A stretch of 64,000 nt of DNA from Bryobacterales bacterium (GTDB lineage Bacteria; Acidobacteriota; Terriglobia; Bryobacterales; Bryobacteraceae), in contig CAVVZG010000031.1 of the NCBI GenBank assembly GCA_963752205.1, forward strand, positions 11,282 to 75,281, in the 5' to 3' direction. The translations under genes and the position numbers were made by a program. The notes below the pieces were generated by a model that made no database searches, had not been told where the DNA came from, and worked only from the letters and a program-made list of their open reading frames with translations. This document shows positions 724 to 15,690 of the stretch, one piece after another. Position 1 is the stretch's first letter. The number at the start of each line of letters is the position of its first letter.

Positions 724-3700
724 TTACTTCGCCAAGGCTGGCAGCGTAGTGAAGGTGTGCGCGACGGGGATGCGGATGCCGAGCGCGCCGATCTGCGCGC
801 CCGCGGGAGCGTCAAACTCAATGGTGCCGCGGATGCCGGCAGCGGACGGATATTTGTCGACCGCAAGCGTGAACGCCAAATGCCCATTTGCGGCCAGAGA
901 TATGGTGTCGGTAGCGATTTGCGTTCCCGCGTCGTTGCGCACCACTACCGGGATGTTTACGCCTTGCGCGGATACGCTGTTGATCGCGACACCGGTCGCC
1001 GTCTGGCTGGTGTTGTCGAAGGCCAATAAGTAAGCGCCGGCGTTGCGGCTTTCAAGCGGCACCACTGCCTCCTGGCCATTGGGATTGTAGCGGAAGATCA
1101 CGAAGCCTCCGACGTGTCCATTGGTGGTGAGCTGCGCCGAGCCTATTGTTGGCGCGGGATCGGAAAGCGGCGCGGCACTTTGCACGATCAACGACGCGCC
1201 GGCAGCGATGACTTGATTGACCGAGGGAGCCGTCGTAGTGGTCCCACTGCCGGATTGCGGGAACCCCAGGGGCAGTGACAGAGCTGCGCCACTATCGGCG
1301 AAGAAACTCAAGTTGGCTTGCGCCGCGGTTGTGCCCGTGTTCACCAGTACAAACGTAGTCTGCCAGCCGTTGCCGGTCGCGATGTGCGCGATGGAGCCTC
1401 CGCCGGTGCCCACGTTGGCCAGAGCCGGAATAGTGGTGAGGGTAGTCGTGGTTCCCAAAGGAGTGGTGCGGATGCCCAGCACGCTGATCTGTCCTCCAGC
1501 CGGTGTGTCGAACTCGATGGTGCCGCGTTTGCCAGTTGTCACGGGATAGAGCGTCGACAGCACAAACGAGTAATGGCCGTTGCCAGCAAGGAAAATGGTG
1601 GCTCCGGGCGTACCGATCATGGTTCCCGTGTCGTCGCGGATCACGATTGGAATAACGGCCGGCTGCGAGGAAACATTCTCAACGGCCACGCCGAGCACCA
1701 CGCCTGCTGTGTTGTCGAAAGCTAGCAAATAAGAACTGGCGTTGCGGGTTTCCAAAGGCACGACGGCCTCCTGCGCTCCCGGAATCAGATGGAAGATGGC
1801 GAAGCCGTCGACGGCGCCGGTAGCGGCGAGTTGCGCCGAACCCACCAGGACCGGCGGAGTCTGCGGACCCGCCGTGGTAATCACGAACGACGCATTGGCG
1901 GCGACCGTCTGGTCGAGCGACGACGCGAGAATCGGCGCGGCTGCCGGCGATTGTGGAAACACCAGGGGCAGCGTGAGCGCACCGCTCGGGTCACCGAATA
2001 AACTTAAGCGCGCGGTCGCCGAGGACGCGCTCTTATCGACCAACGTGAAGGTTGTCGTCCAGTTCTCCTCCGCCGCCATATGCGGCATGGAGCCGATGAA
2101 GCTCAGGCCGGGGAGCGCGAAGGCCTGCTGCTGAATGGCAAACGCAACGCCTCCGATGGTCAGATTCGCCACGCGAGCCGCGCCTGCATTCGGCAGCACC
2201 TGAAAAATGAAACTCCCGTTGCCGGTGCCGCTGCCCGTGGAGGCGATCACCCAAGCGGGCGCGCCGCTGGCGGTCCACGGGCAGCTTAGGGGAGCGGTAA
2301 CCGCAATGGTTCCGTTTCCGCCCGCCGCGGGGAATGCCTCGCCTCCATCGCCGAGCGAATAGGTGCAGTTGGCAGGCGACAGTGTGAAGTTCAAAGCCAC
2401 CAACGCCGTGGTGGATTGGTTCCAGGTCACGCGGACACTCCACACACCCGGGAACGAAGCGGCGGAGGTTCCGTTGATGTTCATAGCCTGTGAAAGACAA
2501 CCGCTGGCTGCTGCGATGGTGGTGGAGGCGTTAGAGTAAACGACGCTATCCGGGCGTATAAATTGAATTTGCGCGGTGTCTCCCACATTCGCTCCGCTGT
2601 ACTGAAAAAAAATGTACACCTGCGCCGATTGCGTGGTGAAGCTGGAAACCGACGGCGGCGGAACGCAGACCCCGTTCACGATGCCGCTGCCGGTAGACGT
2701 GACCTGGTTGCTCACCGTGACCTGCGGTGGGGGTGGTGAGGTAGTGCCACCGAGAGAATAGCCGATGACGTCGAGGACCAGGATCTCGGCCGTTGGTGAA
2801 ATGTTGACATTCGCGATTCCCGCGCAGACCGTCCCCTGCACCAGTTCCGGGCTGCAACTCGGCACCCAATCGCCGGCGTCATAGCCGTCGCTAATGTTGT
2901 AGTATTGCTGCAACATATGAACGCCGTCGATTGAAAAGCACGCATTCCCGGCGTTGGCGGTGCTGCACGAACTGTTGTTGCCGGGTGCGAAGCTGCGCAT
3001 GCCGTTGCTCTGATAGCGGTACAAGTCCGGCGCGGCGATACGGTTCGCGCCGCAGGTGCCGAAGGCGCACGACGCCGTGCCGATAATTTCGTCGGTCTCA
3101 TGCTGGACAGTGGTAAAGAAATCGAATTGCGAGGGTCCGATCGATCCGTTGCGAAAATAGTAATTTCCCGCGGATTGGATGTCGGCGCTCATGGTGATAA
3201 TGCCGTCGTAGCAGCCGGCCGTGCCGCCGGTACAGTTGCCGCCAGTGGAGGTCACCCCGCCGGAAGGCGTGAATCCCAGCGCCCGCATGCCGGGCAGCGT
3301 GAGAAGAACGCTATAAGCGGCGTTGATGGGATTGGTGGCGGGGACGCTGTCATTGAACGCAGTGGTATCGTTCGCGCTGCTGAGACCGCTCTGCAGCGCG
3401 CTGCGGAACGCGCTATAGGTGACCTCGTTAAACAAAAAATTGCTCTGGCCCGCGTCGTTGCTGCCGATATTGCCAAATGTAATATAAATACTGGCACTCA
3501 CATTCGTAAATGTGCCGGCATAAATCCCTGCAATCGTGGTATTCAGGGTGTTACAAACTCCCGCGACGGCGGTAACGCTGGGATCGCAGGTATAAGTGAT
3601 CCCGCTGGGAGCCGCGGCTCCGCTCGGCGTGGGCGGAAGGCCGGCGAGCGAGATCACGTGGCTCTCGCGCACAGCATGCTGGTTCTGACCCGCAATGGCC

Positions 3701-3792
3701 GCCCCCGCGGACGCCATCCTCACTTCGGTTGTCTGGGCACTGACGAAGGGGACGCAAATGAGTAGGAATGTGGTTATCCAGGCAATCATCAA
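724..3792 (-). CDS. Large secreted multidomain protein of unknown function: Cys-rich N-terminal domain, Ig/BACON-like segment, two tandem C-terminal repeat domains.
   Basis: 1022-aa ORF with signal peptide MMIAWITTFLLICVPFVSAQT. The N-terminal domain has many Cys and a QHETDEIIG (HExxE-like) motif. aa 473-555 (CTYSL...CPWTA...GNGSFIFQV...RVANLTIGG..F.IQQ) resembles BACON/Ig-like binding modules. aa 565-793 and 799-1022 are paralogous repeats. Confidence 0.8.
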   Translation of the reverse strand: MMIAWITTFLLICVPFVSAQTTEVRMASAGAAIAGQNQHAVRESHVISLAGLPPTPSGAAAPSGITYTCDPSVTAVAGVCNTLNTTIAGIYAGTFTNVSASIYITFGNIGSNDAGQSNFLFNEVTYSAFRSALQSGLSSANDTTAFNDSVPATNPINAAYSVLLTLPGMRALGFTPSGGVTSTGGNCTGGTAGCYDGIITMSADIQSAGNYYFRNGSIGPSQFDFFTTVQHETDEIIGTASCAFGTCGANRIAAPDLYRYQSNGMRSFAPGNNSSCSTANAGNACFSIDGVHMLQQYYNISDGYDAGDWVPSCSPELVQGTVCAGIANVNISPTAEILVLDVIGYSLGGTTSPPPPQVTVSNQVTSTGSGIVNGVCVPPPSVSSFTTQSAQVYIFFQYSGANVGDTAQIQFIRPDSVVYSNASTTIAAASGCLSQAMNINGTSAASFPGVWSVRVTWNQSTTALVALNFTLSPANCTYSLGDGGEAFPAAGGNGTIAVTAPLSCPWTASGAPAWVIASTGSGTGNGSFIFQVLPNAGAARVANLTIGGVAFAIQQQAFALPGLSFIGSMPHMAAEENWTTTFTLVDKSASSATARLSLFGDPSGALTLPLVFPQSPAAAPILASSLDQTVAANASFVITTAGPQTPPVLVGSAQLAATGAVDGFAIFHLIPGAQEAVVPLETRNASSYLLAFDNTAGVVLGVAVENVSSQPAVIPIVIRDDTGTMIGTPGATIFLAGNGHYSFVLSTLYPVTTGKRGTIEFDTPAGGQISVLGIRTTPLGTTTTLTTIPALANVGTGGGSIAHIATGNGWQTTFVLVNTGTTAAQANLSFFADSGAALSLPLGFPQSGSGTTTTAPSVNQVIAAGASLIVQSAAPLSDPAPTIGSAQLTTNGHVGGFVIFRYNPNGQEAVVPLESRNAGAYLLAFDNTSQTATGVAINSVSAQGVNIPVVVRNDAGTQIATDTISLAANGHLAFTLAVDKYPSAAGIRGTIEFDAPAGAQIGALGIRIPVAHTFTTLPALAK
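727..1398 (-). repeat. C-terminal repeat 2 (aa 799-1022) of the 1022-aa secreted protein.
   Basis: GWQTTFVLVNTG...LSLPLGFPQS...GSAQLTTNGHVGGFVIFRYNPNGQEAVVPLESRNAGAYLLAFDNT...RGTIEFDAPAGAQIGALGIR aligns colinearly with repeat 1, roughly half of positions identical by eye. Confidence 0.8.
1414..2100 (-). repeat. C-terminal repeat 1 (aa 565-793) of the 1022-aa secreted protein.
   Basis: NWTTTFTLVDKS...LTLPLVFPQS...GSAQLAATGAVDGFAIFHLIPGAQEAVVPLETRNASSYLLAFDNT...RGTIEFDTPAGGQISVLGIR, a tandem duplicate of the following domain. Confidence 0.8.
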
Positions 3793-3951
3793 ACACCACC
3801 AAGCGGAACCTCAGAATATCCGCTCTTCTAATATTTTGCAATCAGCGATTCTCATTATTCGAACGCGGATAGAGGGCCCAAACACCTGAGCTAGGGTCCG
3901 GTTACACTGAGAGAATCCTGAAGGGTGCCAAACCTTGATATAGGAGGCTGT

Positions 3952-4410
3952 ATGGAAGCGATCATTTCAGATCTGTTGAACCGTTTCGAGAAGGGAGCGC
4001 TCTCGCGGCGGGGATTGATTCAGGGGCTGGCGATGCTGACGGCGGCAGGCGCCCAAGCCCAAGACACGGCGATCAAGCCCGTCAAGATCGATCATGTGAG
4101 CATTCAGGTGACCGACCTGCCGCGGTCGATTGCCTTTTACCAGAAGATATTTGGATTTACCGTCGTGAGCGAGGACAAGCCCAACGAAATCGTGCGGCTG
4201 GGCGCGGCCGGGAAGGTGTTGGTGTCGCTGCACCATAAGAGTCCCACGGGCCTGGTGGATCACTATGCGATCGGCGTTGAGAAGTTCAATAAGGAAGCTG
4301 TGACGCGCGAATTGAAGGAGCGCGGAGCGACTCCGGAAGAGAATCTGGATGCCGGATTTCACATCAAAGATCCCGAAGGAATGCGGGTTCAGATTGTCGG
4401 GCCAGCTTAA
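3952..4410 (+). CDS. VOC-family (glyoxalase / bleomycin resistance / extradiol dioxygenase fold) protein with a Tat-type signal.
   Basis: ORF 3925..4410. Start moved to ATG 3952, preceded by AGGAGG (3942-3947). Signal LSRRGLIQGLAMLTAAGAQA. VOC motifs IDHVSIQVTDL, FYQKIFGF, DHYAIGV, GFHIKDPEGMRVQI. Confidence 0.8.
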   Translation: MEAIISDLLNRFEKGALSRRGLIQGLAMLTAAGAQAQDTAIKPVKIDHVSIQVTDLPRSIAFYQKIFGFTVVSEDKPNEIVRLGAAGKVLVSLHHKSPTGLVDHYAIGVEKFNKEAVTRELKERGATPEENLDAGFHIKDPEGMRVQIVGPA

Positions 4411-4414
4411 CTCG

Positions 4415-4741
4415 TTAGTGGTTCAAAATCGGAATACTTTTCGACGCCGGCGGGGCGGGGATGCTTTGCAGGAACGCGTAGATGTCGGCGAGTTCCTGGT
4501 CCTTCACCACTTTGCTGGTGTACGGCGGCATTTCGCCCTTGGGGTTACGCACGTAGCGGCTGAATGCCGCGAAGGGAATCGGGTTCGGCGCCAGGCGCGC
4601 TCCGGCTCCCCCTTTCGCGTCGTGATCGTGGCACTGATAGCAACCATAGGCGTCGAAGATTTTCTTGCCGTTGGCGGCGTTGCCCGCGGGAGTTTGCGCT
4701 TCCAACACGCAGGCCATCGCGAGAAATATGAAGTAGCGCAT
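4415..4741 (-). CDS. Small periplasmic class I c-type cytochrome.
   Basis: 108-aa ORF with a signal peptide, a single CYQCH heme-binding site and a distal Met (KGEMPPY). Its start lies 8 nt after the stop of the upstream TPP-enzyme gene. Confidence 0.85.
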   Translation of the reverse strand: MRYFIFLAMACVLEAQTPAGNAANGKKIFDAYGCYQCHDHDAKGGAGARLAPNPIPFAAFSRYVRNPKGEMPPYTSKVVKDQELADIYAFLQSIPAPPASKSIPILNH

Positions 4742-4749
4742 GTTGGCCT

Positions 4750-6654
4750 CTAACGCGGTTGCGTGACGACGTCCACCAGGGCCGGTCCGCCGCTACGTTC
4801 CACCGCGTCGAGCGCGCGACGGATTGCCGGACCAAGATCCTTGGCTTCGGTGATAGGGCCTTCGCCATACACGCCCAGGCCGCGGACCATAGTGGCGAAA
4901 TCGATGTTGGGATCTGTGATGGTAGTGCCGATGCCGGCGTTCTCGATGCCACGCTGGTGACGGTTAGCCATGCGCTGGACGTGCATCACTTCCTGGTGAT
5001 ACGCGCGATTGTTGTGCATCACACTGAGCAAAGGGATACGGTGATGGGCCGCGGTCCACAAGGCCCCGGGAGCGTACATGAGATCGCCGTCAGTCTGGAT
5101 CGCCACGGATAGCCGTCCATGCTTGCGGTTGGCAAGGGCTCCGCCGACGGAGCCCGGCGCGGTGTAGCCGACACCTGCCGCGCCGCCGCCGCCGGCAGTA
5201 CGATAAATCTTGTCGACGTTCCACAGACGCGAAGCGCCTCCGCCGACCAACGACCAATCTTTCGCGCGGATCACTTCGTACAGCTCAGCTTGTAGGCGGG
5301 CGAGGCTGATGGGGCTCGAATCCCATCCATACGTGGCTTCGTCCCGCGCGCGCTGCATGCCTTGTTCGTGCGCCGCCGCCAACTTCTTGCCGCGGTCTTC
5401 GAAGGCGCGCTTGCGATCGGCCGTGAGCAGGCGTTTGCAGGCTTCGATCAGGTAGGGAAGCGTGGCCTCCGCGTCGGCCACGATAGAGATCTCGGTTTCC
5501 GGGTAGCGCTGGAAATATTGGTAATTGCTCTTCATGCCCAGTTCGAGGGCGGAGATGCTGACTACCTTAGTGGTCGGCTTGATGAACGTTTGCGTGGAGC
5601 GATGCAACTGATCGCGTACGGTGTTGACGGTTCCCCACAAGTCCGGCACTTCGAGGCCGACAATGAGGTCCGCATTGGCGATCAGCGCTCGGCCACCGGC
5701 CTGGCTGAGCGGATGATGGTTGGGAAACTTTCCGCCCACAACGGGAGCTTGCAGCGTTTCGGCGAGTTCGACCAGCAACGCTTGGCCCGCTTCGGTGCGC
5801 ACACAGCGGTCGGCGAAAATGACGGGATTTTCGGCATCGACCAGCAGCTTCGCCACCGCAGCCACGGAAGCGGAATCGCCGGCGGGCGGGCCAGACGCCG
5901 TGTATTTCGGGATGTGCAATTTTAGATTCGCTTCGACCGGCGTCTCTTGCAGATCGCTATCGGCGACCAGGATCACCGGTCCCATGGGCGGGGTGACGGC
6001 CAACTTGTAAGCGCGCACGGCGGATTCGGCGAAGTGCGGCAGCGAGATCGGCAGATCGTCCCACTTGGAATAATCGCGCACCATGGCGACGGCGTCCTGG
6101 GCGCTGTGATACCACTCGATCAGCGGCCGGCGCGCGGTGGCGTCAATCGTGTTGCCCAAAATAATAAACGCGGGCGAGCGTCCCGCGTAGGCGTTATAAA
6201 TCGCCATCGCGGCATGCTGCAGCCCGACGGTACTGTGCGCCATCACCGCCAATGGCTTGCCGTCGATCTTGGCATAGCCGTCGGCCATCGCAACCGACTG
6301 TTCTTCGTGGCAGCAAGTGATCAGCTCCGGCGCTTTGTTGCCGCCGTAATTGATGATGGACTCGTGCAGCGCGCGGAAACTCGATCCCGGGTTGGCGCAG
6401 ATATATTCGAAGCCGAGCGACTTCAGCACATCGACCATGAAGTCCGAACCTGGGCGGTCTGCGGTTAAGACTTCGACGTCTGTCGCGACGGGTTCTGTTT
6501 CTTTAGCCAGCGCCGTGGCGGACGGCACGGCCACATTGCGGCGGGTTTCGGGAGCTTGCGCTTTCGCGGGGGACTGGGTCACCAGCGCCGCCGCGCCTGC
6601 AGCGGCGCCCTTCAAAAAGCCGCGCCGCCCCGAGGGATTCTTCGACTTCGCCAT
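4750..6654 (-). CDS. Thiamine-pyrophosphate-dependent enzyme (acetolactate synthase / pyruvate oxidase superfamily) with a twin-arginine export signal.
   Basis: ORF 4750..6735. Start moved to M28 (ATG 6654), giving MAKSKNPSGRRGFLKGAAAGAAAL (SRRxFLK-type Tat motif), 1 nt after the upstream stop (6656-6658). Three-domain TPP-enzyme layout. TPP-binding motif IQTDGDLMY...(x)...VMHNNRAY. Confidence 0.85.
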   Translation of the reverse strand: MAKSKNPSGRRGFLKGAAAGAAALVTQSPAKAQAPETRRNVAVPSATALAKETEPVATDVEVLTADRPGSDFMVDVLKSLGFEYICANPGSSFRALHESIINYGGNKAPELITCCHEEQSVAMADGYAKIDGKPLAVMAHSTVGLQHAAMAIYNAYAGRSPAFIILGNTIDATARRPLIEWYHSAQDAVAMVRDYSKWDDLPISLPHFAESAVRAYKLAVTPPMGPVILVADSDLQETPVEANLKLHIPKYTASGPPAGDSASVAAVAKLLVDAENPVIFADRCVRTEAGQALLVELAETLQAPVVGGKFPNHHPLSQAGGRALIANADLIVGLEVPDLWGTVNTVRDQLHRSTQTFIKPTTKVVSISALELGMKSNYQYFQRYPETEISIVADAEATLPYLIEACKRLLTADRKRAFEDRGKKLAAAHEQGMQRARDEATYGWDSSPISLARLQAELYEVIRAKDWSLVGGGASRLWNVDKIYRTAGGGGAAGVGYTAPGSVGGALANRKHGRLSVAIQTDGDLMYAPGALWTAAHHRIPLLSVMHNNRAYHQEVMHVQRMANRHQRGIENAGIGTTITDPNIDFATMVRGLGVYGEGPITEAKDLGPAIRRALDAVERSGGPALVDVVTQPR

Positions 6655-6655
6655 G

Positions 6656-8053
6656 CTAACCGCCCCCTCCCACTTGCAGATACTTGCTGTGAACGATGGT
6701 CTTCGGGTCTGCATCCTTTCCCACCACCACACCATAGAACGGGTTCATCATTTCTTCCCACGTCATGGTGCCGTAGTACACGGTCTTGTTGGGATTGGGA
6801 TTGAACTTATTGTTCACCGAGTTGTCGAAATGCGCGTCGACGTGGAGGACGGTTCCCTTCGGGACCTTGATCGACGTGTTGTAGCCGAGTTGCCAGTTGA
6901 AGTCGTAATGCGGGACGCTCAAGATGGTCTTTTTGGTTCCGTCCGGATATTCCAGAATGTACGTCATGTCCTTGCCACGGAAATGCATGTGCGGCATCAA
7001 GTACACCAGTTCGGCATCCTGCAGGAACGTGACTTCAGCAGGTGGACTCAGCCAGTTGGGATCGTTCGGTGGAATCGCGAAGCGCTTGGCGTCAGTGGGC
7101 GAAGTCGTTAGGAACGAAACATAGCGGCGCTCCGGCGCCCTGTCGAGAACCGTGAAGCCCACCTTCACGTGATCGGTCACGGCGGTTCCATTGGGCGTGT
7201 AGTGCAAGTTGAAAGTGATATCCGATCCGGCGGGGATCAGCTTGGCGGCGTTGATGGCGCGATAGTCGGCGGCGAAGTTGCCGGGAAGGTAGCAATCCTC
7301 AGCGCCTCCCGGAGGCTGTGAGCCTCCACTTTGCCCCAAGCCGCGCGGGCCTCCGGCGACGGGACTGCCGTCGTTACTGCGCGGCGTACCACCGCCCAGG
7401 AAGGTCGGACCCTTTTCAGGACGCGCGGAGCCTTCTTCGTCGCGCTCCTTGTCGGCCCAGTAGGCGACGCCATATTTGTAGTTCGGGTTGTGCGGTAAAT
7501 AGCCGATGCAGATGTGATGCGTGACCGCGGGGAACTCGGGCTTGATCTGCACCGAGGTCACCCAAGTGTCCTTAGTGAAACCCGTCGGCATGATCACCGT
7601 GATCCATTCGACCACATTGTTTTTTGGACGGGCAGGCACATCGGTGACCGGCCCATCGACAATGATGTCCGGTTTGATGGCCCAGCCTTCCGGCCACACA
7701 ACGGCCACGGGGGCGTCCTTCGCGTCACCCTCGGGTGCGCCGGCATCCGCCCACTGCGCGATGGTATCGATCTCGTTCTGTTTGAGCGAACGGTCGTTCA
7801 GATACGGGCCATGCTGGGGATCGGCAAACCAGGGCGGCATCTTGCGCGCGAGCACCGCGGCCTTCATCGCCTTCGCCCACGGGCGAACGTTTTGATAGGT
7901 GAGAAACGACATCGGCGCGACTTGCCCGGGTCGATGGCAGGTCTGGCAATTTCTCTGCAGAATCGGCTCGACGTCTTTGTGAAATGTGACCGGCGCATCG
8001 GCGGCGAGAGCTGCGGAAGCCATGGTCAATGCGAATAAGGCAAGCAGGCGCAT
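6656..8053 (-). CDS. Heme-c-fused copper type II monooxygenase-like protein (PHM/DBH fold).
   Basis: 465-aa ORF with signal peptide MRLLALFALTMASAALA. CQTCH at aa 36-40. Candidate copper ligands: HH179-180 (AVTHHICIGY), H284 (FNLHYTPNG), H355-x-H357 (LMPHMHFRGKDM), M430/M435 (GTMTWEEMM). The spacings (about 70 aa between the last three) mirror the CuH/CuM sites of peptidylglycine alpha-hydroxylating monooxygenase, as recalled. Confidence 0.7.
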   Translation of the reverse strand: MRLLALFALTMASAALAADAPVTFHKDVEPILQRNCQTCHRPGQVAPMSFLTYQNVRPWAKAMKAAVLARKMPPWFADPQHGPYLNDRSLKQNEIDTIAQWADAGAPEGDAKDAPVAVVWPEGWAIKPDIIVDGPVTDVPARPKNNVVEWITVIMPTGFTKDTWVTSVQIKPEFPAVTHHICIGYLPHNPNYKYGVAYWADKERDEEGSARPEKGPTFLGGGTPRSNDGSPVAGGPRGLGQSGGSQPPGGAEDCYLPGNFAADYRAINAAKLIPAGSDITFNLHYTPNGTAVTDHVKVGFTVLDRAPERRYVSFLTTSPTDAKRFAIPPNDPNWLSPPAEVTFLQDAELVYLMPHMHFRGKDMTYILEYPDGTKKTILSVPHYDFNWQLGYNTSIKVPKGTVLHVDAHFDNSVNNKFNPNPNKTVYYGTMTWEEMMNPFYGVVVGKDADPKTIVHSKYLQVGGGG

Positions 8054-8054
8054 A

Positions 8055-9188
8055 CTATTTTGCTCCTCCTGACGCCACCTTGGCGCGGTCCGGATGCAGC
8101 GTCACTTTTTGCACCCGCCAGTTGTTCATGTCGGCGATGAAGAGAGTGTTTTCCGCGGGGCACGCCATGCCGTGGATCCAGCTGAACTGGCCGACGTCGT
8201 GGCCGGATTCGCCGAACATGCCTAGAATCTTGCCATCGAGCGAAAGCTTGTAAACACGGCCCGGTTCGTTGTCGGAAGTGTAGAGATACTGCGTGGGGCC
8301 TTGCGTGATGCAAATGGTCCAGGGTGCGGTTTCGTCGGGCGGATTGGCCGGCGCGTTGCCCAGCACGGGATGCCGCGACTTGTCGTACTTCGCGTTCAAA
8401 ACAATAAAGCGCTGAAAGTTCCCGTCACGATCGAAGACCTGGATACGGCGGTTGCCGCGGTCCGCCACGTAGACGTTGTTCTGGCGGTCGATGCCAATGT
8501 TATGCGGGGTATTGAACATGCCGGGGTTCTCATTGGCGTGCACCCCGCCGCTGCCGCGTTCGCCCCAGGACTTGATCCAGTTGCCGTGCTTGTCGAACTT
8601 GGCAACGCGCGAATTGATGTAGCCGTCGCTGATATAAATGTTGTCGTCCGAGTCGAAGGCGACATCGGTGGGAGCGCGAAAGTATCCGTCTAGCTGTGGA
8701 AGCTCCGGAAACACGGATGTCGCTGCGCCTCCACGGCCCAGGCCGTTGCCTTTGTAGTAGTCGGGCTCGTCGGGGCCTTCGGGCCTGCGGCCCAGATTCA
8801 GCGTGACCATGCCGGCCGGATTGAAGCGCATGGCTGCGTGTGTACCTTTGTCAACCACCCATAGGTTGTCGTATTTATCGAAGCGGACACCGTGCCCATA
8901 ACCGAGTCCGTAAACGCCTTTGCCAAGTTCACGGATCAGTTTGCCGGTGGAGTCAAACTCTAGAAGCTGCGTCGTGGCGTTGCCGTAGAGCGGACCGGAT
9001 GTCGCGCTGCCCGGGTGATTCAGCACCACGATCGTGCCTTTGGAATTGACGGCGACGCCTAGCACTTCGCCCAGGTTCAACTGATAATTCAGCTTGAGAA
9101 AGTTGGGGTCGGGATCAAAAGGGATCGTCGGAACCGCTGTTTGGCCGAACGCCGGCAGAGCCAGGAGTAGAAGTGTTGCGAAACGCAT
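8055..9188 (-). CDS. NHL-repeat six-bladed beta-propeller protein, peptidyl-alpha-hydroxyglycine alpha-amidating lyase (PAL)-like.
   Basis: ORF 8055..9245. Start moved to M20 (ATG 9188, MRFATLLLLALPAFGQ signal). Blocks VLGVAVNSKGTIVVLNHPG, GHGVRFDKYDNLWVVDKGTHAAMRFNP, FRAPTDVAFDSDDNIYISDGYINSRVAKFDKHGNWIKSWGERG and MFNTPHNIGIDRQNNVYVADRGNRRIQVF parallel the PAL domain of animal PAM (recalled: PTDVAV...VSDGYCNSRIVQF..., VADRENGRIQCF). The stop is 1 nt from the start of the PHM-like gene. Confidence 0.8.
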   Translation of the reverse strand: MRFATLLLLALPAFGQTAVPTIPFDPDPNFLKLNYQLNLGEVLGVAVNSKGTIVVLNHPGSATSGPLYGNATTQLLEFDSTGKLIRELGKGVYGLGYGHGVRFDKYDNLWVVDKGTHAAMRFNPAGMVTLNLGRRPEGPDEPDYYKGNGLGRGGAATSVFPELPQLDGYFRAPTDVAFDSDDNIYISDGYINSRVAKFDKHGNWIKSWGERGSGGVHANENPGMFNTPHNIGIDRQNNVYVADRGNRRIQVFDRDGNFQRFIVLNAKYDKSRHPVLGNAPANPPDETAPWTICITQGPTQYLYTSDNEPGRVYKLSLDGKILGMFGESGHDVGQFSWIHGMACPAENTLFIADMNNWRVQKVTLHPDRAKVASGGAK

Positions 9189-9247
9189 GTGGGAAGCCTC
9201 TCTATGTGCCTCCCGCAGCTTAATCCCACGCGGCGGCGGTGTCAATC

Positions 9248-10606
9248 TTACTTGGGAGCGCCGGCGGCCATGTCGTTTCGGATCACTTTTCCGCCCTTCA
9301 TGACGAACTTGACGCGCTGCAACTCAGTGATATCGGCGAGGGGGTCGCCGGAGACCGCGACCAAGTCCGCGAACTTGCCCTTTTCAACGGATCCGATTTG
9401 ATCCTGCCATCCCAGCGCCTCGGCGTTGATGATGGTCCCGGATTGAATCGCGTGCGCCGGAGTCATGCCGGCCAACTTCACCAGCGCTTCGAATTCCAGA
9501 GCCTGCGTACCGTGGGCGAAGGTGGCACCGTCGGCACCGCTGCCGGCCATGACCTTGATGCCTTTGGTAGCGGCGGCCATGGTGGCGGCTTTCGTGAAAA
9601 TCGGGATGATGCGGTACTTGCCGCCGGTGTTCTTCTTGTCGTTATCGTCCATGTAGGGCTCGGTGTAGCGGACGATGGTGGGGTCGTAGTACAGGCCTTT
9701 GGCGATCATCATGTTCACTTGTTCCTGATCGAGGCCGAAGCCGTGCTCAATGGTGTCGCAACCGGCGATGATGGCGTTCCTTTGGCCCTCGCCGCCGTAG
9801 ACGTGGCAACCGCTCTTCTTGCCCAGGCGATGGGTTTCGTCGATCAGGGCTTGGACGACGGGCAGCGGATAGGTGACTTCATATTGATCTTTGCCGGTCG
9901 GGCTGAACGAGTAGGCGCCTGCTGGATACAGCTTGATCCAATCGGCGCCGTGGGCGATCTCTTCACGTACGGCGGCGCGCGCTTCTTCCACCGTGTGAAC
10001 CGCGATGGGGTTGAGCGGGTTGACGGGAACAGCGGGGTCAAGAGGGTTGGCGCTCCACACGATCCCGCGCGTCGACACCTGGTAGCGCGGGCCGTCGATG
10101 CGTCCTTGATTAATGGCGTCGCGGACAGCGACGTCGCCGTAGCCATTGCCGTGCGAGGTCATATCGCGTGCCGCTGTGAAGCCCGCGCGCAGGTTGTTCT
10201 GCACGTTTTGAACGGCGATCAGCATGTAGTCTTCGGTGGTGCCGTTGGGCTTGCGCTGATTGAACATGTGGGTGTGGGCGTCTATCAAGCCCGGCAGAAC
10301 GGTGGCTTGGCTGAGGTCGATCACCTCGAAGCCGGCGGGAATTTTCACTTGGGATGCCGGGCCTACTTCGGTAATGCGGTCGCCGGCGATGAGCACCACT
10401 TGTTTCGTCAACATCTGGCCGGCCTTGCTGTCGAACAGGCGGCCGGCGCGGACGGCGTACGAGCGGGCAGCGGGAGGGCACTGGAAGATGCCGCCGTCGG
10501 AGCCGACGCAGGGCGGCATACCTGCTCCGCGCCACGGAGCCGGAGGCGGTTGCGGCTGTGCCCACAGCGCGGCCGCACCTAATAAGATTCCGAGAACTAA
10601 TTTCAT
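9248..10606 (-). CDS. Secreted metal-dependent amidohydrolase (prolidase / imidazolonepropionase-like superfamily).
   Basis: 452-aa ORF with signal MKLVLGILLGAAALWAQ. Motifs VLPGLIDAHTHM, SGCHVYG, CDTIEHG. ATGA start/stop overlap with pabB at 10603-10606. The antisense ORF 9239..10582 is judged spurious. Confidence 0.85.
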   Translation of the reverse strand: MKLVLGILLGAAALWAQPQPPPAPWRGAGMPPCVGSDGGIFQCPPAARSYAVRAGRLFDSKAGQMLTKQVVLIAGDRITEVGPASQVKIPAGFEVIDLSQATVLPGLIDAHTHMFNQRKPNGTTEDYMLIAVQNVQNNLRAGFTAARDMTSHGNGYGDVAVRDAINQGRIDGPRYQVSTRGIVWSANPLDPAVPVNPLNPIAVHTVEEARAAVREEIAHGADWIKLYPAGAYSFSPTGKDQYEVTYPLPVVQALIDETHRLGKKSGCHVYGGEGQRNAIIAGCDTIEHGFGLDQEQVNMMIAKGLYYDPTIVRYTEPYMDDNDKKNTGGKYRIIPIFTKAATMAAATKGIKVMAGSGADGATFAHGTQALEFEALVKLAGMTPAHAIQSGTIINAEALGWQDQIGSVEKGKFADLVAVSGDPLADITELQRVKFVMKGGKVIRNDMAAGAPK

Positions 10607-11900
10607 CGTTTGATCTCCTCTAACGCCCGCACGAAGGCGGCGGCTTTGTGGCTGCTCTCCAAGAACTCAGTATGGGGATCGGAGTCAGCCGTGATACCGC
10701 ACCCGGCATAGTATCGCACTTGGCCGTCTGCCGTGAAAGCCGTGCGGATGGCGACGGACAGCTCCATGTTCCCGTCCATCGAAATCCAACCGATGGCGCC
10801 CATGCAGGGGCCGCGCAGTTGGCCTTCTTCGCGCATGGCGGCGCGGATGGCTTCAATCTTGGGCGCACCTGTGATGGATGCTGCGGGAAACGCGGCCCTG
10901 AGTAAATCGACCAATCCGCCGCGAAGGCGTCCCCTAACCGTCGAATACAAATGATGGACGGTCGGGAGTGTCATCAGCGCGGCGTGCTGGATGACTTCCA
11001 CTGATCCGGTTTCGCACACTCTGCCGAGATCGTTGCGTACTACGTCTACGATCATGGCGAGTTCTGCGCGATCTTTTTCGCTGGTGAGGAGTTCGGCTGA
11101 CAGCGCCTGATCTTCGGCGGCGTCGTGAGCGCGCGGGCGTGTTCCCTTGATCGGCGACGACTCAACATTTCCCGCGTCCACCTTCAGGAACAATTCGGGA
11201 CTGATAGAAAGGATCGCCCGCTGGTCGTCTATTTGAATGTAGGACTCGTATTGCGCGGGGCTGATCGCACGCATTCGTTGGTAGAGGTCCCAAGCCAGCG
11301 CTGGGTCCAGATCGGTTTCGAGGCGGCGGCAGAGGTTGGTCTGGAAGATATCGCCGGCGCGGATGGTGGCCACGATTCGTTCGACCGACGCTTCAAAGGC
11401 TGCGCGATCTGGGCGGCTGCGGAGCGCCGGTGGAGTTCGCCAAGCGGTAGTTGCCGAGTGATGCCATTGATGATTCTCCAGGGTTAAGGCGGAATCGTAT
11501 AGGGCCGAAGTAGAACTGCGGAAAAGTGAAGTCCGGCCGGGGGATAGGTCCCAGGTCCTCGATTTCGGTGGCGAGGTCGTAGGAGAGAAATCCGGCGAGA
11601 ATGGCCTCTGAATGGCCGCGCCAAGCTTCGAGCATGGCTTCTAATACATCGAAGGCGGGGGCCGAGAGTTCGACCGTTCCCGCGTCGCTGGTGATCACGG
11701 CAGATCCGTTGGAGTAGGTTACCGTCGCCAGGGGGTTGTTCAACAGGAGGGGCTTTGTCCCAGTCACGTATGCGAAACCCGGTACAGGGTGCAACGATTC
11801 GTCAATTTGATCGGTACTTGCTCTGCGGCGGAGGCTTGGAGGGCGGAGTACGGAATGCAGCTTCGCCACCAGCGCGTGTAACCGCTCCGGTGGGGTTCGA

Positions 11901-11911
<11 letters not shown>
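10603..11911 (-). CDS. pabB: Aminodeoxychorismate synthase component I (PabB-like chorismate-binding enzyme). The reading frame is interrupted by a 1-nt indel near 11492-11496.
   Basis: ORF 11393..11911 carries the N-terminal part (FLSYDLATEIEDLGPIPRPDFTFPQFYFG). Shifting one frame at the GGCCC run continues LYDSALTLENHQWHHSATTAWRTPPALRSRPDRAAFEASVERIVATIRAGDIFQ into ORF 10603..11373 (SPELFL, GTRPR, MIVDVVRNDLGRV, FPAASITGAPK, GAIGW). Confidence 0.75.

Positions 11912-15690
<3,779 letters not shown>

Follow-up and report, generated by a model that had tools for sequence, protein, structure and literature searches.

The subject of this report is a pair of adjacent genes on the minus strand of a 64,000-nucleotide stretch of Bryobacterales DNA (hereafter the window), whose products are exported relatives of the two catalytic halves of the animal peptidylglycine alpha-amidating monooxygenase (PAM). 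The first gene of the pair (8055..9188) encodes an NHL beta-propeller of the PAL family, and the second (6656..8053) encodes a periplasmic protein of the PHM/DBH superfamily of copper monooxygenases that carries a linked heme-c domain; both assignments are well supported, with similarities far in excess of chance. Homology, fold, conservation of the ligands, gene order and spacing, and the limited spread of the pair are established here, whereas the binding of copper, heme and zinc, the route of the electrons, the reactions and any coupling of the two enzymes are inferred. An original prediction, made from the sequence alone, had read the two genes as a bacterial two-gene PAM. The open reading frame coordinates, minus strand, 1-nt spacer, quoted peptide blocks and listed residues on which it was built were all confirmed in the sequence, but its headline claim is only partly supported, and peptide amidation by bacteria in this way goes beyond the present data. 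The reading that we favour, tentatively and at a little under an even chance, is that a hydroxylase and a lyase form a catabolic pair specific to this lineage, with an N-substituted substrate of a non-canonical kind, as part of a recently assembled periplasmic operon of five exported proteins.

The PHM/DBH-like protein

Textbooks present PHM, DBH and their relatives as copper enzymes of the eukaryotic neuroendocrine system. The bacterial relative in the window is a secreted protein of 465 amino acids (6656..8053, minus strand), composed of a signal peptide (residues 1-18), a cytochrome c domain (residues 20-110, approximately) and a two-domain copper core (residues 125-450, approximately). Direct profile searches speak against placing it in this superfamily, as the Pfam scan returned no match to Cu2_monooxygen (PF01082) or Cu2_monoox_C (PF03712) at E <= 0.1, its only matches there being weak ones to Cytochrome_CBB3 and Haem_bd. 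The NCBIfam scan returned nothing, and no chain among the PDB sequences was matched either by the protein itself with phmmer or by a 43-sequence profile. The homology emerged only through the fold search, profile-profile alignment with hhalign and the distant relatives of the protein.

The AlphaFold2 (AF2) model of the protein has a mean confidence (pLDDT) of 75.5 and falls within the PHM/DBH fold. The first 31 ranks of the Foldseek search were occupied exclusively by human DBH (4zel) and rat PHM (E 3e-9 to 4e-7, probability 1.00), with TM-scores of about 0.5-0.63 on the PHM target length, and the matches after rank 31 were far weaker. When a family profile built from 46 diverse relatives (33-88% identity) was aligned with rat PHM, using a sequence 100% identical to that of PDB 4e4z, hhalign gave a probability of 91% and an E-value of 1.1e-6 over 237 columns. 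One of the two Pfam profiles that the original prediction had named as a check, although silent on the window protein, does reach its distant relatives: 17 of the 59 long relatives match PF03712 at E <= 0.001 (best E 4.5e-7), and a relative scanned separately, P0294, passes the family cutoff with 30.7 bits against 23. It is because fold search, profile-profile alignment and Pfam matches of distant relatives agree that the assignment to the PHM/DBH superfamily is well supported.

The window protein shares the two-domain beta-sandwich fold of PHM (the N-terminal domain of animal and algal PAM), DBH and tyramine beta-monooxygenase, and like PHM it is secreted and extracytoplasmic. The six copper ligands, arranged as HH, H, HxH and M, occur in identical order and with near-identical spacing in both proteins, even though the window protein is only about 15% identical to PHM, lacks a Pfam match and carries a Gly-rich insertion of about 35 residues between HH180 and H284. 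In the hhalign alignment, HH179-180 (7514..7519) corresponds to His107 and His108 of the PHM CuH site, and H284, within an LHY motif (7202..7204), to the third CuH ligand His172; all three are present in each of the 46 relatives. The CuM histidines His242 and His244 are matched by H355-M-H357 (6983..6991), each conserved in 45/46 relatives and followed by a conserved R359-G-K, and the CuM methionine Met314 is matched by M435 of an EEM motif (6749..6751; 46/46). The columns of all six ligands are also invariant in the 59 long relatives. The ligand set foreseen in the original prediction thus holds, save that it had offered M430 beside M435 as the CuM methionine; M430 is conserved in just 7/46 relatives and does not fill that role.

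Ahead of the copper core, the predicted N-terminal signal and heme-c site are both present. The CQTCH attachment motif spans residues 36-40 (7934..7948), with C36, C39 and H40 invariant in 46/46 relatives, as is Met72 of a KMPPW motif (7838-7840), the probable axial heme ligand; the Cys-x-x-Cys-His and Met columns are likewise invariant in 59/59 long relatives. Since CxxCH and Met72 are invariant, the c-type heme domain must be regarded as an integral part of the PHM-like family, which makes it a reasonable inference, as the original prediction had proposed, that it serves as electron entry in place of ascorbate. PHM and DBH, in contrast, rely on supply by ascorbate or cytochrome b561, or on the DOMON domain of DBH, rather than on a fused c-type cytochrome. 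How electrons cover the long distance of 11 A between the two coppers of these enzymes is a matter of continuing debate (PMC12164859). A bacterial PHM/DBH branch in which the six ligands are conserved and a c-type cytochrome donor is covalently fused would offer enzymologists a new and possibly simpler system.

The PAL-like propeller

The upstream partner of the pair (8055..9188, minus strand) encodes a six-bladed NHL beta-propeller of 377 amino acids with a signal peptide, starting at an ATG (Pfam NHL, E 5.8e-17). An alternative TTG start upstream, at 9245, is unlikely because homologs of the protein begin with MR. Its resemblance to PAL, claimed in the original prediction, proved solid. Aligned with rat PAL (using a sequence 100% identical to residues 7-329 of 3fvz), the NHL family profile gave an hhalign probability of 98.9% and an E-value of 1.8e-17, with 32% identity over 282 columns, and the two propellers are collinear throughout. 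The best Foldseek match of the AF2 model (pLDDT 78.6) was again rat PAL 3fvz (E 5e-20), barely ahead of the NHL domains of TRIM proteins and Thin, and a profile of NHL homologs searched against the PDB did not rank PAL over generic NHL domains. The signal that is specific to PAL thus seems to reside in the collinearity and in the active-site residues.

The zinc ligands of PAL are reportedly His585, His690 and His786, and its catalytic residue Tyr654 (Chufan et al. 2009). All of these residues have counterparts in the alignment. The putative zinc ligands H99 (8892-8894), H229 (8502-8504) and H339 (8172-8174) correspond to His585, His690 and His786, respectively, and the predicted catalytic tyrosine Y190 (8619-8621) to Tyr654, all four being invariant in 33 homologs. 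R244 (8457-8459), conserved in at least 90% of the same homologs, corresponds to Arg706. On these grounds the protein is well supported as a PAL-family propeller, in which zinc would be bound by the three histidines.

Besides these likenesses, the window protein departs from PAL at several positions. PAL Arg533 aligns with Pro59 in the hhalign alignment or with His58 in that of MAFFT, and His58-Pro59 is invariant in the NHL subfamily of the window. Asp787 of the PAL calcium site is replaced by Gly340, while Val520 is retained as V45; Met784 is replaced by Trp; and blade 3 carries an insertion of about 30 residues. Whereas PAL is joined to PHM in bifunctional PAM, the NHL protein is a stand-alone exported protein and, across genomes, mostly has no PHM-like neighbour.

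Bacterial NHL propellers of the ScyF type were considered as an alternative home for the protein. It shows NHL-repeat similarity to the corresponding NCBIfam model (NF035926), but the 104.8 bits obtained are far under the 350-bit cutoff and membership was rejected. Close homologs already bear the name 'peptidyl-alpha-hydroxyglycine alpha-amidating lyase family protein' at NCBI.

A different NHL paralog, found in Solibacteraceae metagenome-assembled genomes (MAGs) at two of the loci surveyed below (L007, 6738-7856; L008, 3448-4458), keeps an arginine at the position of PAL Arg533, and by this residue it appears nearer to canonical PAL than the NHL subfamily of the window does.

Function and distribution of the pair

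According to the explanation that we favour, the two proteins would work in sequence in this lineage, bringing about an oxidative cleavage beside nitrogen in which a hydroxylation is followed by lyase-assisted collapse. The 465-residue protein would be a PHM/DBH-type two-copper monooxygenase that takes its electrons from the fused N-terminal cytochrome c and not from ascorbate, the cytochrome itself being reduced by the respiratory chain or by a soluble cytochrome c. Electrons would then run from heme c to CuH (His179, His180, His284) and on to CuM (His355, His357, Met435), where activated O2 would serve to hydroxylate the substrate at a C-H bond. The NHL propeller, acting as a PAL-type zinc enzyme (His99, His229, His339, Tyr190, Arg244), would break down the carbinolamide-type hydroxylated product. 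The substrate may be peptide-like or an N-substituted amide, handled before or after these steps by the dipeptidase-like amidohydrolase encoded next to the pair.

Several features make sequential action plausible, namely the sequential chemistry of the two families, their probable co-translation, the shared export of the cluster products, the adjacent peptidase-like gene, and the recurrence of this gene order in another juxtaposition at locus L007; comparative genomics, on the other hand, does not back it. Co-translation is suggested by the junction between the genes, which reads TAG-t-ATG with a 1-nt spacer and has a Shine-Dalgarno-like AGGAGG just upstream, inside the NHL gene. All five products of the cluster carry export signals, of the Sec type except for the Tat signal of a thiamine-diphosphate (TPP) enzyme encoded downstream. 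The pair resembles PAM, which in animals and Chlamydomonas is one bifunctional protein, in that its two catalytic types are encoded jointly, are expected to be co-expressed and are extracytoplasmic. Unlike in PAM, the order is reversed, with the PAL-like gene first, the two are separate polypeptides, and the pairing is limited to one shallow bacterial lineage.

The distribution of the pair was followed in two surveys, one centred on PHM-like genes (80 loci from GTDB genomes, almost all of them Bryobacterales or Terriglobia MAGs, with NHL genes sought within 8 kb) and one centred on NHL genes (80 metagenome loci). Close relatives keep the arrangement. The two genes are adjacent in 9/9 loci with an NHL gene that shares at least 94% identity with that of the window (L001-L003 and L084-L089), and these loci preserve the order amidohydrolase, NHL, PHM-like wherever the contig reaches far enough. 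In the PHM-centred survey the whole cluster was found solely in L001-L003, where identity to the PHM-like gene of the window is 93% or more, and in the NHL-centred survey a PHM-like gene lies directly downstream in 6/6 loci with an NHL gene at least 95% identical.

Beyond this narrow group the evidence turns against a dedicated pair. Around PHM-like relatives at 57-85% identity, the surrounding 8 kb are free of NHL genes in 74 of 77 loci; the relatives at 78-85% adjoin unrelated genes instead, such as those for an aminotransferase, a GH15 glycosidase, a nuclease, a pirin or a response regulator. Conversely, no PHM-like gene is found near the NHL orthologs of 70-89% identity in 71 of 74 metagenome loci, nor near those on any of three long contigs (L081-L083; 85%, 84% and 74% identical). 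No fusion of the two proteins occurs among 69 long relatives, 10 of which were scanned singly, the other 59 being covered by the 25 Pfam families listed for them. Both families are, in addition, very large, rich in paralogs, acidobacterial and present in many contexts. The PHM-like query retrieved 15,655 clusters at 50% identity with E <= 0.001 (1,947 with E <= 1e-30), its genes occur in at least 3-5 close copies per MAG and can form tandem arrays, and the NHL search gave at least 8,000 matches. The pair is thus not a conserved unit across relatives, and the co-conservation in related genomes to which the original prediction had tied its claim is absent outside the loci with NHL genes at least 94% identical.

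The juxtapositions met outside the close group are few. In L007 the other NHL paralog (48% identical) immediately precedes a PHM-like gene of 80% identity, the order being that of the window, and in L008 this paralog (48% identical) lies 3.5 kb from the PHM-like gene; L059 offers a weak NHL match within 8 kb. Near the NHL orthologs of 70-89% identity, PHM-like genes were found in L130 (32% identical), L138 (41%, in divergent orientation) and L147 (27%, about 5 kb off). By a rough estimate made with no formal test, some four independent juxtapositions among about 150 loci are roughly at chance level, given the great size of both families and their several copies in each genome; this, too, weighs against the pair as a functional unit. 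A census of neighbours in the 80 PHM-centred loci found no dominant partner, the commonest neighbour clusters being present in only 15-17 of them; inspection of representative sequences suggests that these are a PQQ dehydrogenase, a TonB-type receptor and a metallo-beta-lactamase-like protein.

These results suit an alternative explanation, in which the two proteins are active enzymes of the PHM/DBH and PAL kinds working on unrelated substrates, and their adjacency, a product of the shuffling of two expanded families, has no functional meaning. Adjacency confined to loci with near-identical NHL genes, orthologs of each gene in unrelated contexts at 70-89% identity, and the size and copy number of both families all fit this explanation, and so does the cluster itself, which is a mosaic: L086 has the NHL, PHM-like and glyoxalase genes and is otherwise syntenic, but lacks the genes for the TPP enzyme and a small cytochrome c, and in L002 the TPP gene is preceded by 2.2 kb of inserted DNA. 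Nor can much be drawn from gene spacing, which is uninformative in this genome because the start of the amidohydrolase gene overlaps, by 4 nt, the stop of an unrelated cytoplasmic gene for a chorismate-binding enzyme. Arguing for a functional link are the 1-nt spacer with its internal ribosome-binding site, the export of all cluster products, the natural succession of the two chemistries, and the recurrence of the NHL-then-PHM-like order with another NHL paralog in L007 and, more loosely, in L130 and L138. Meaningless adjacency is regarded as unlikely, if still a serious contender.

A second alternative keeps the coupling and takes the pair as a true bacterial equivalent of PAM, with the copper enzyme hydroxylating the alpha-carbon of the C-terminal glycine of peptides or N-acylglycines, and the lyase releasing the amide and glyoxylate. 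This is the amidation system of the original prediction, of which the homologies, the metal ligands, the adjacency and the export stood. All metal ligands, the catalytic tyrosine and Arg706 of the animal enzymes are conserved, the likeness of the NHL protein to rat PAL extends over the whole propeller, and an exported peptidase-like amidohydrolase is encoded alongside. The residues that anchor the substrate, however, differ in both members of the window pair. The roles of the PHM copper ligands have been described together with the hold on the substrate carboxylate, which involves a salt bridge with Arg240 as well as Tyr318 and Asn316 (PMC12164859). In the hhalign alignment, whose identity of about 15% means that the pairing of pocket residues may shift by about one residue, Arg240 falls on Met353, a position most often occupied in the 46 relatives by M, T, Q, L, Y or F. 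Tyr318 falls on Phe439, where the family has F, W or Y, and Asn316 falls on Asn437, at a variable position. The carboxylate anchors Arg240 and Tyr318 of PHM are thus not kept, and on the side of the lyase Arg533 gives way to the invariant His-Pro of the subfamily. Because the anchors are replaced on both enzymes (Arg240 by Met353, Tyr318 by Phe439, Arg533 by His58/Pro59), the substrate is read as non-canonical, and a peptide with a C-terminal glycine is probably not what the window pair acts on.

Arg359, two residues past the second CuM histidine and conserved in 45/46 relatives, could, speculatively, act as an alternative carboxylate anchor, which would speak for the PAM-like reading. Together with the lack of co-conservation of the pair, and with the fact that the cluster shows no sign of an amidated product or of a gene for a precursor, the loss of the glycine-carboxylate anchors leaves a true PAM equivalent improbable. 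What can be said is that bacteria possess the two halves of the animal amidating enzyme and that these can meet in one operon, which bears on the origin of PAM.

The architecture of the PHM-like family brings in a further alternative. Unlike PHM and DBH, the window family is very large and paralog-rich in Acidobacteriota, and is often fused to redoxins: an AhpC-TSA/Redoxin domain precedes the heme and copper domains in 35 of the 59 long relatives. Other long relatives hold EF-hand, TPR or carbohydrate-binding (CBM48) domains, and among the 10 singly scanned relatives GDSL lipase, PQQ-propeller or peptidase M56 domains are found as additions. The redoxin fusion accounts for the name 'thiol-disulfide isomerase' that NCBI gives to the family, a name unfit for the window protein, in which the Pfam scan found no redoxin domain. 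The redoxin fusions, the NCBI name and the frequent occurrence of the PHM-like gene alone in varied contexts would suit a protein that is no hydroxylase at all but serves in periplasmic redox or copper handling (O2 or peroxide reduction, thiol or copper homeostasis), next to an unrelated NHL protein; the chances of this are slight, given the full conservation of the CuH and CuM ligand sets, including the His2Met site typical of the O2-activating PHM/DBH enzymes, the variation of pocket positions among paralogs expected for diversifying substrates, and the redoxin-less window protein itself.

Neither protein family is new to databases, and the PAL-like annotation is already present in NCBI records, so that what appears new is the nature of the copper protein and not that of its partner. 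A search of the literature found no paper on PHM-like proteins of bacteria or on fusions with heme c, nor any on what bacterial PAL-like proteins do, and the heme-c-fused PHM/DBH-like architecture appears to be undescribed and mislabelled in databases. With thousands of sequence clusters in soil Acidobacteriota, this mislabelled family probably contributes to the oxidative turnover of organic matter in soil.

Four observations on the surveyed loci and relatives may be added. PHM-like paralogs stand in tandem or close together in L017 (two copies), L031 (three within 6 kb), L011, L018, L022, L063 and L064, which points to local gene duplication in the family. The redoxin domain stands at the N-terminus, before the heme and copper domains, in most long members of the family, and P0242, P0283, P0294, P0301, P0314, P0345 and P0374 are among the relatives with such multidomain architectures. 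The 80%-identical PHM-like gene of L007 has an in-frame stop at the codon of Tyr285 (8844-8846), right after the CuH ligand His284 (FNLH*TPNG), reflecting either a pseudogene or a sequencing error in the MAG. In L081 (9216-13734), the 85%-identical NHL ortholog lies beside genes for a 323-aa cytochrome c, a second propeller of the SGL/SBBP type and a Rieske/cytochrome b-c set, a different and redox-flavoured setting for the PAL-like gene.

The surrounding gene cluster

The pair is embedded in a tightly packed series of genes, all on the minus strand, that runs from the amidohydrolase (9248-10606) through the NHL (8055-9188) and PHM-like (6656-8053) genes to the TPP enzyme (4750-6654) and the small cytochrome c (4415-4741). 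The secreted amidohydrolase expected from the original prediction is thus found upstream, and the operon also extends downstream into the last two genes. A promoter and terminator scan of 3800-14200 returned sites no more numerous than in shuffled sequence.

The amidohydrolase (9248..10606), the first periplasmic gene of the cluster, encodes an exported, dipeptidase-like protein of 452 amino acids (Pfam Amidohydro_1, E 2.8e-35) with a signal-like N-terminus (MKLVLGILLGAAALWAQ). It scores 279 bits against the NCBIfam model of the Caulobacter-type Xaa-Pro dipeptidase, under the 500-bit cutoff.

The TPP enzyme (4750..6654) has 634 amino acids when read from the ATG at 6654, which follows the stop of the PHM-like gene in a TAG-c-ATG junction, again with a 1-nt spacer and an upstream Shine-Dalgarno-like sequence. 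Its Tat signal contains the twin-arginine motif SGRRGFLKG, Pfam recognises TPP_enzyme_N, TPP_enzyme_M and TPP_enzyme_C, and the nearest solved structure is that of benzoylformate decarboxylase (E 5e-26). The cluster ends with the gene (4415..4741) for a small exported monoheme cytochrome c of 108 amino acids (Pfam Cytochrome_CBB3, E 6.8e-12). It co-varies with the TPP gene across loci, and the TPP enzyme is a variable accessory of the cluster. An exported TPP enzyme together with a cytochrome c, encoded as a cassette (4415-6654, minus strand), is an unusual pairing that might act as a periplasmic 2-oxoacid:cytochrome c oxidoreductase.

The presence of this cassette allows a bolder proposal. 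The heme-c-fused PHM/DBH-like proteins would form a very large and unrecognised class of periplasmic copper C-H hydroxylases fed directly by the respiratory chain, and here, with a PAL-type lyase and the optional TPP enzyme and cytochrome c, they would make up a self-contained pathway for oxidative N-dealkylation or amide formation, in which the TPP enzyme oxidises the 2-oxoacid set free by the lyase and passes two electrons back through the cytochrome c to the monooxygenase. If true, this closed-loop assembly would be a living model for the origin of the eukaryotic PHM-PAL fusion. The loop at its centre, with glyoxylate released by the lyase as fuel of the TPP enzyme, is weakened by two loci: L086, identical in other respects, has neither the TPP nor the cytochrome c gene, and in L002 both are displaced. 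The proposal is kept only as a long shot.

Beyond the cytochrome c gene lies a convergent gene of the glyoxalase family (3925-4410). On the other side of the cluster, the PabB/TrpE-like chorismate-binding enzyme appears to be split into two open reading frames (10603-11373 and 11393-11911, minus strand) that are 20 nt apart, possibly as a result of a frameshift, and upstream of it are encoded a glutamine amidotransferase (11901-12500) and a GCV_T-like protein (12479-14002). Finally, the region 724-3792 (minus strand) encodes a secreted protein of 1022 amino acids. Its C-terminal part holds two modules that resemble each other, each about 230 residues long, and its only domain match is a weak one to BACON.

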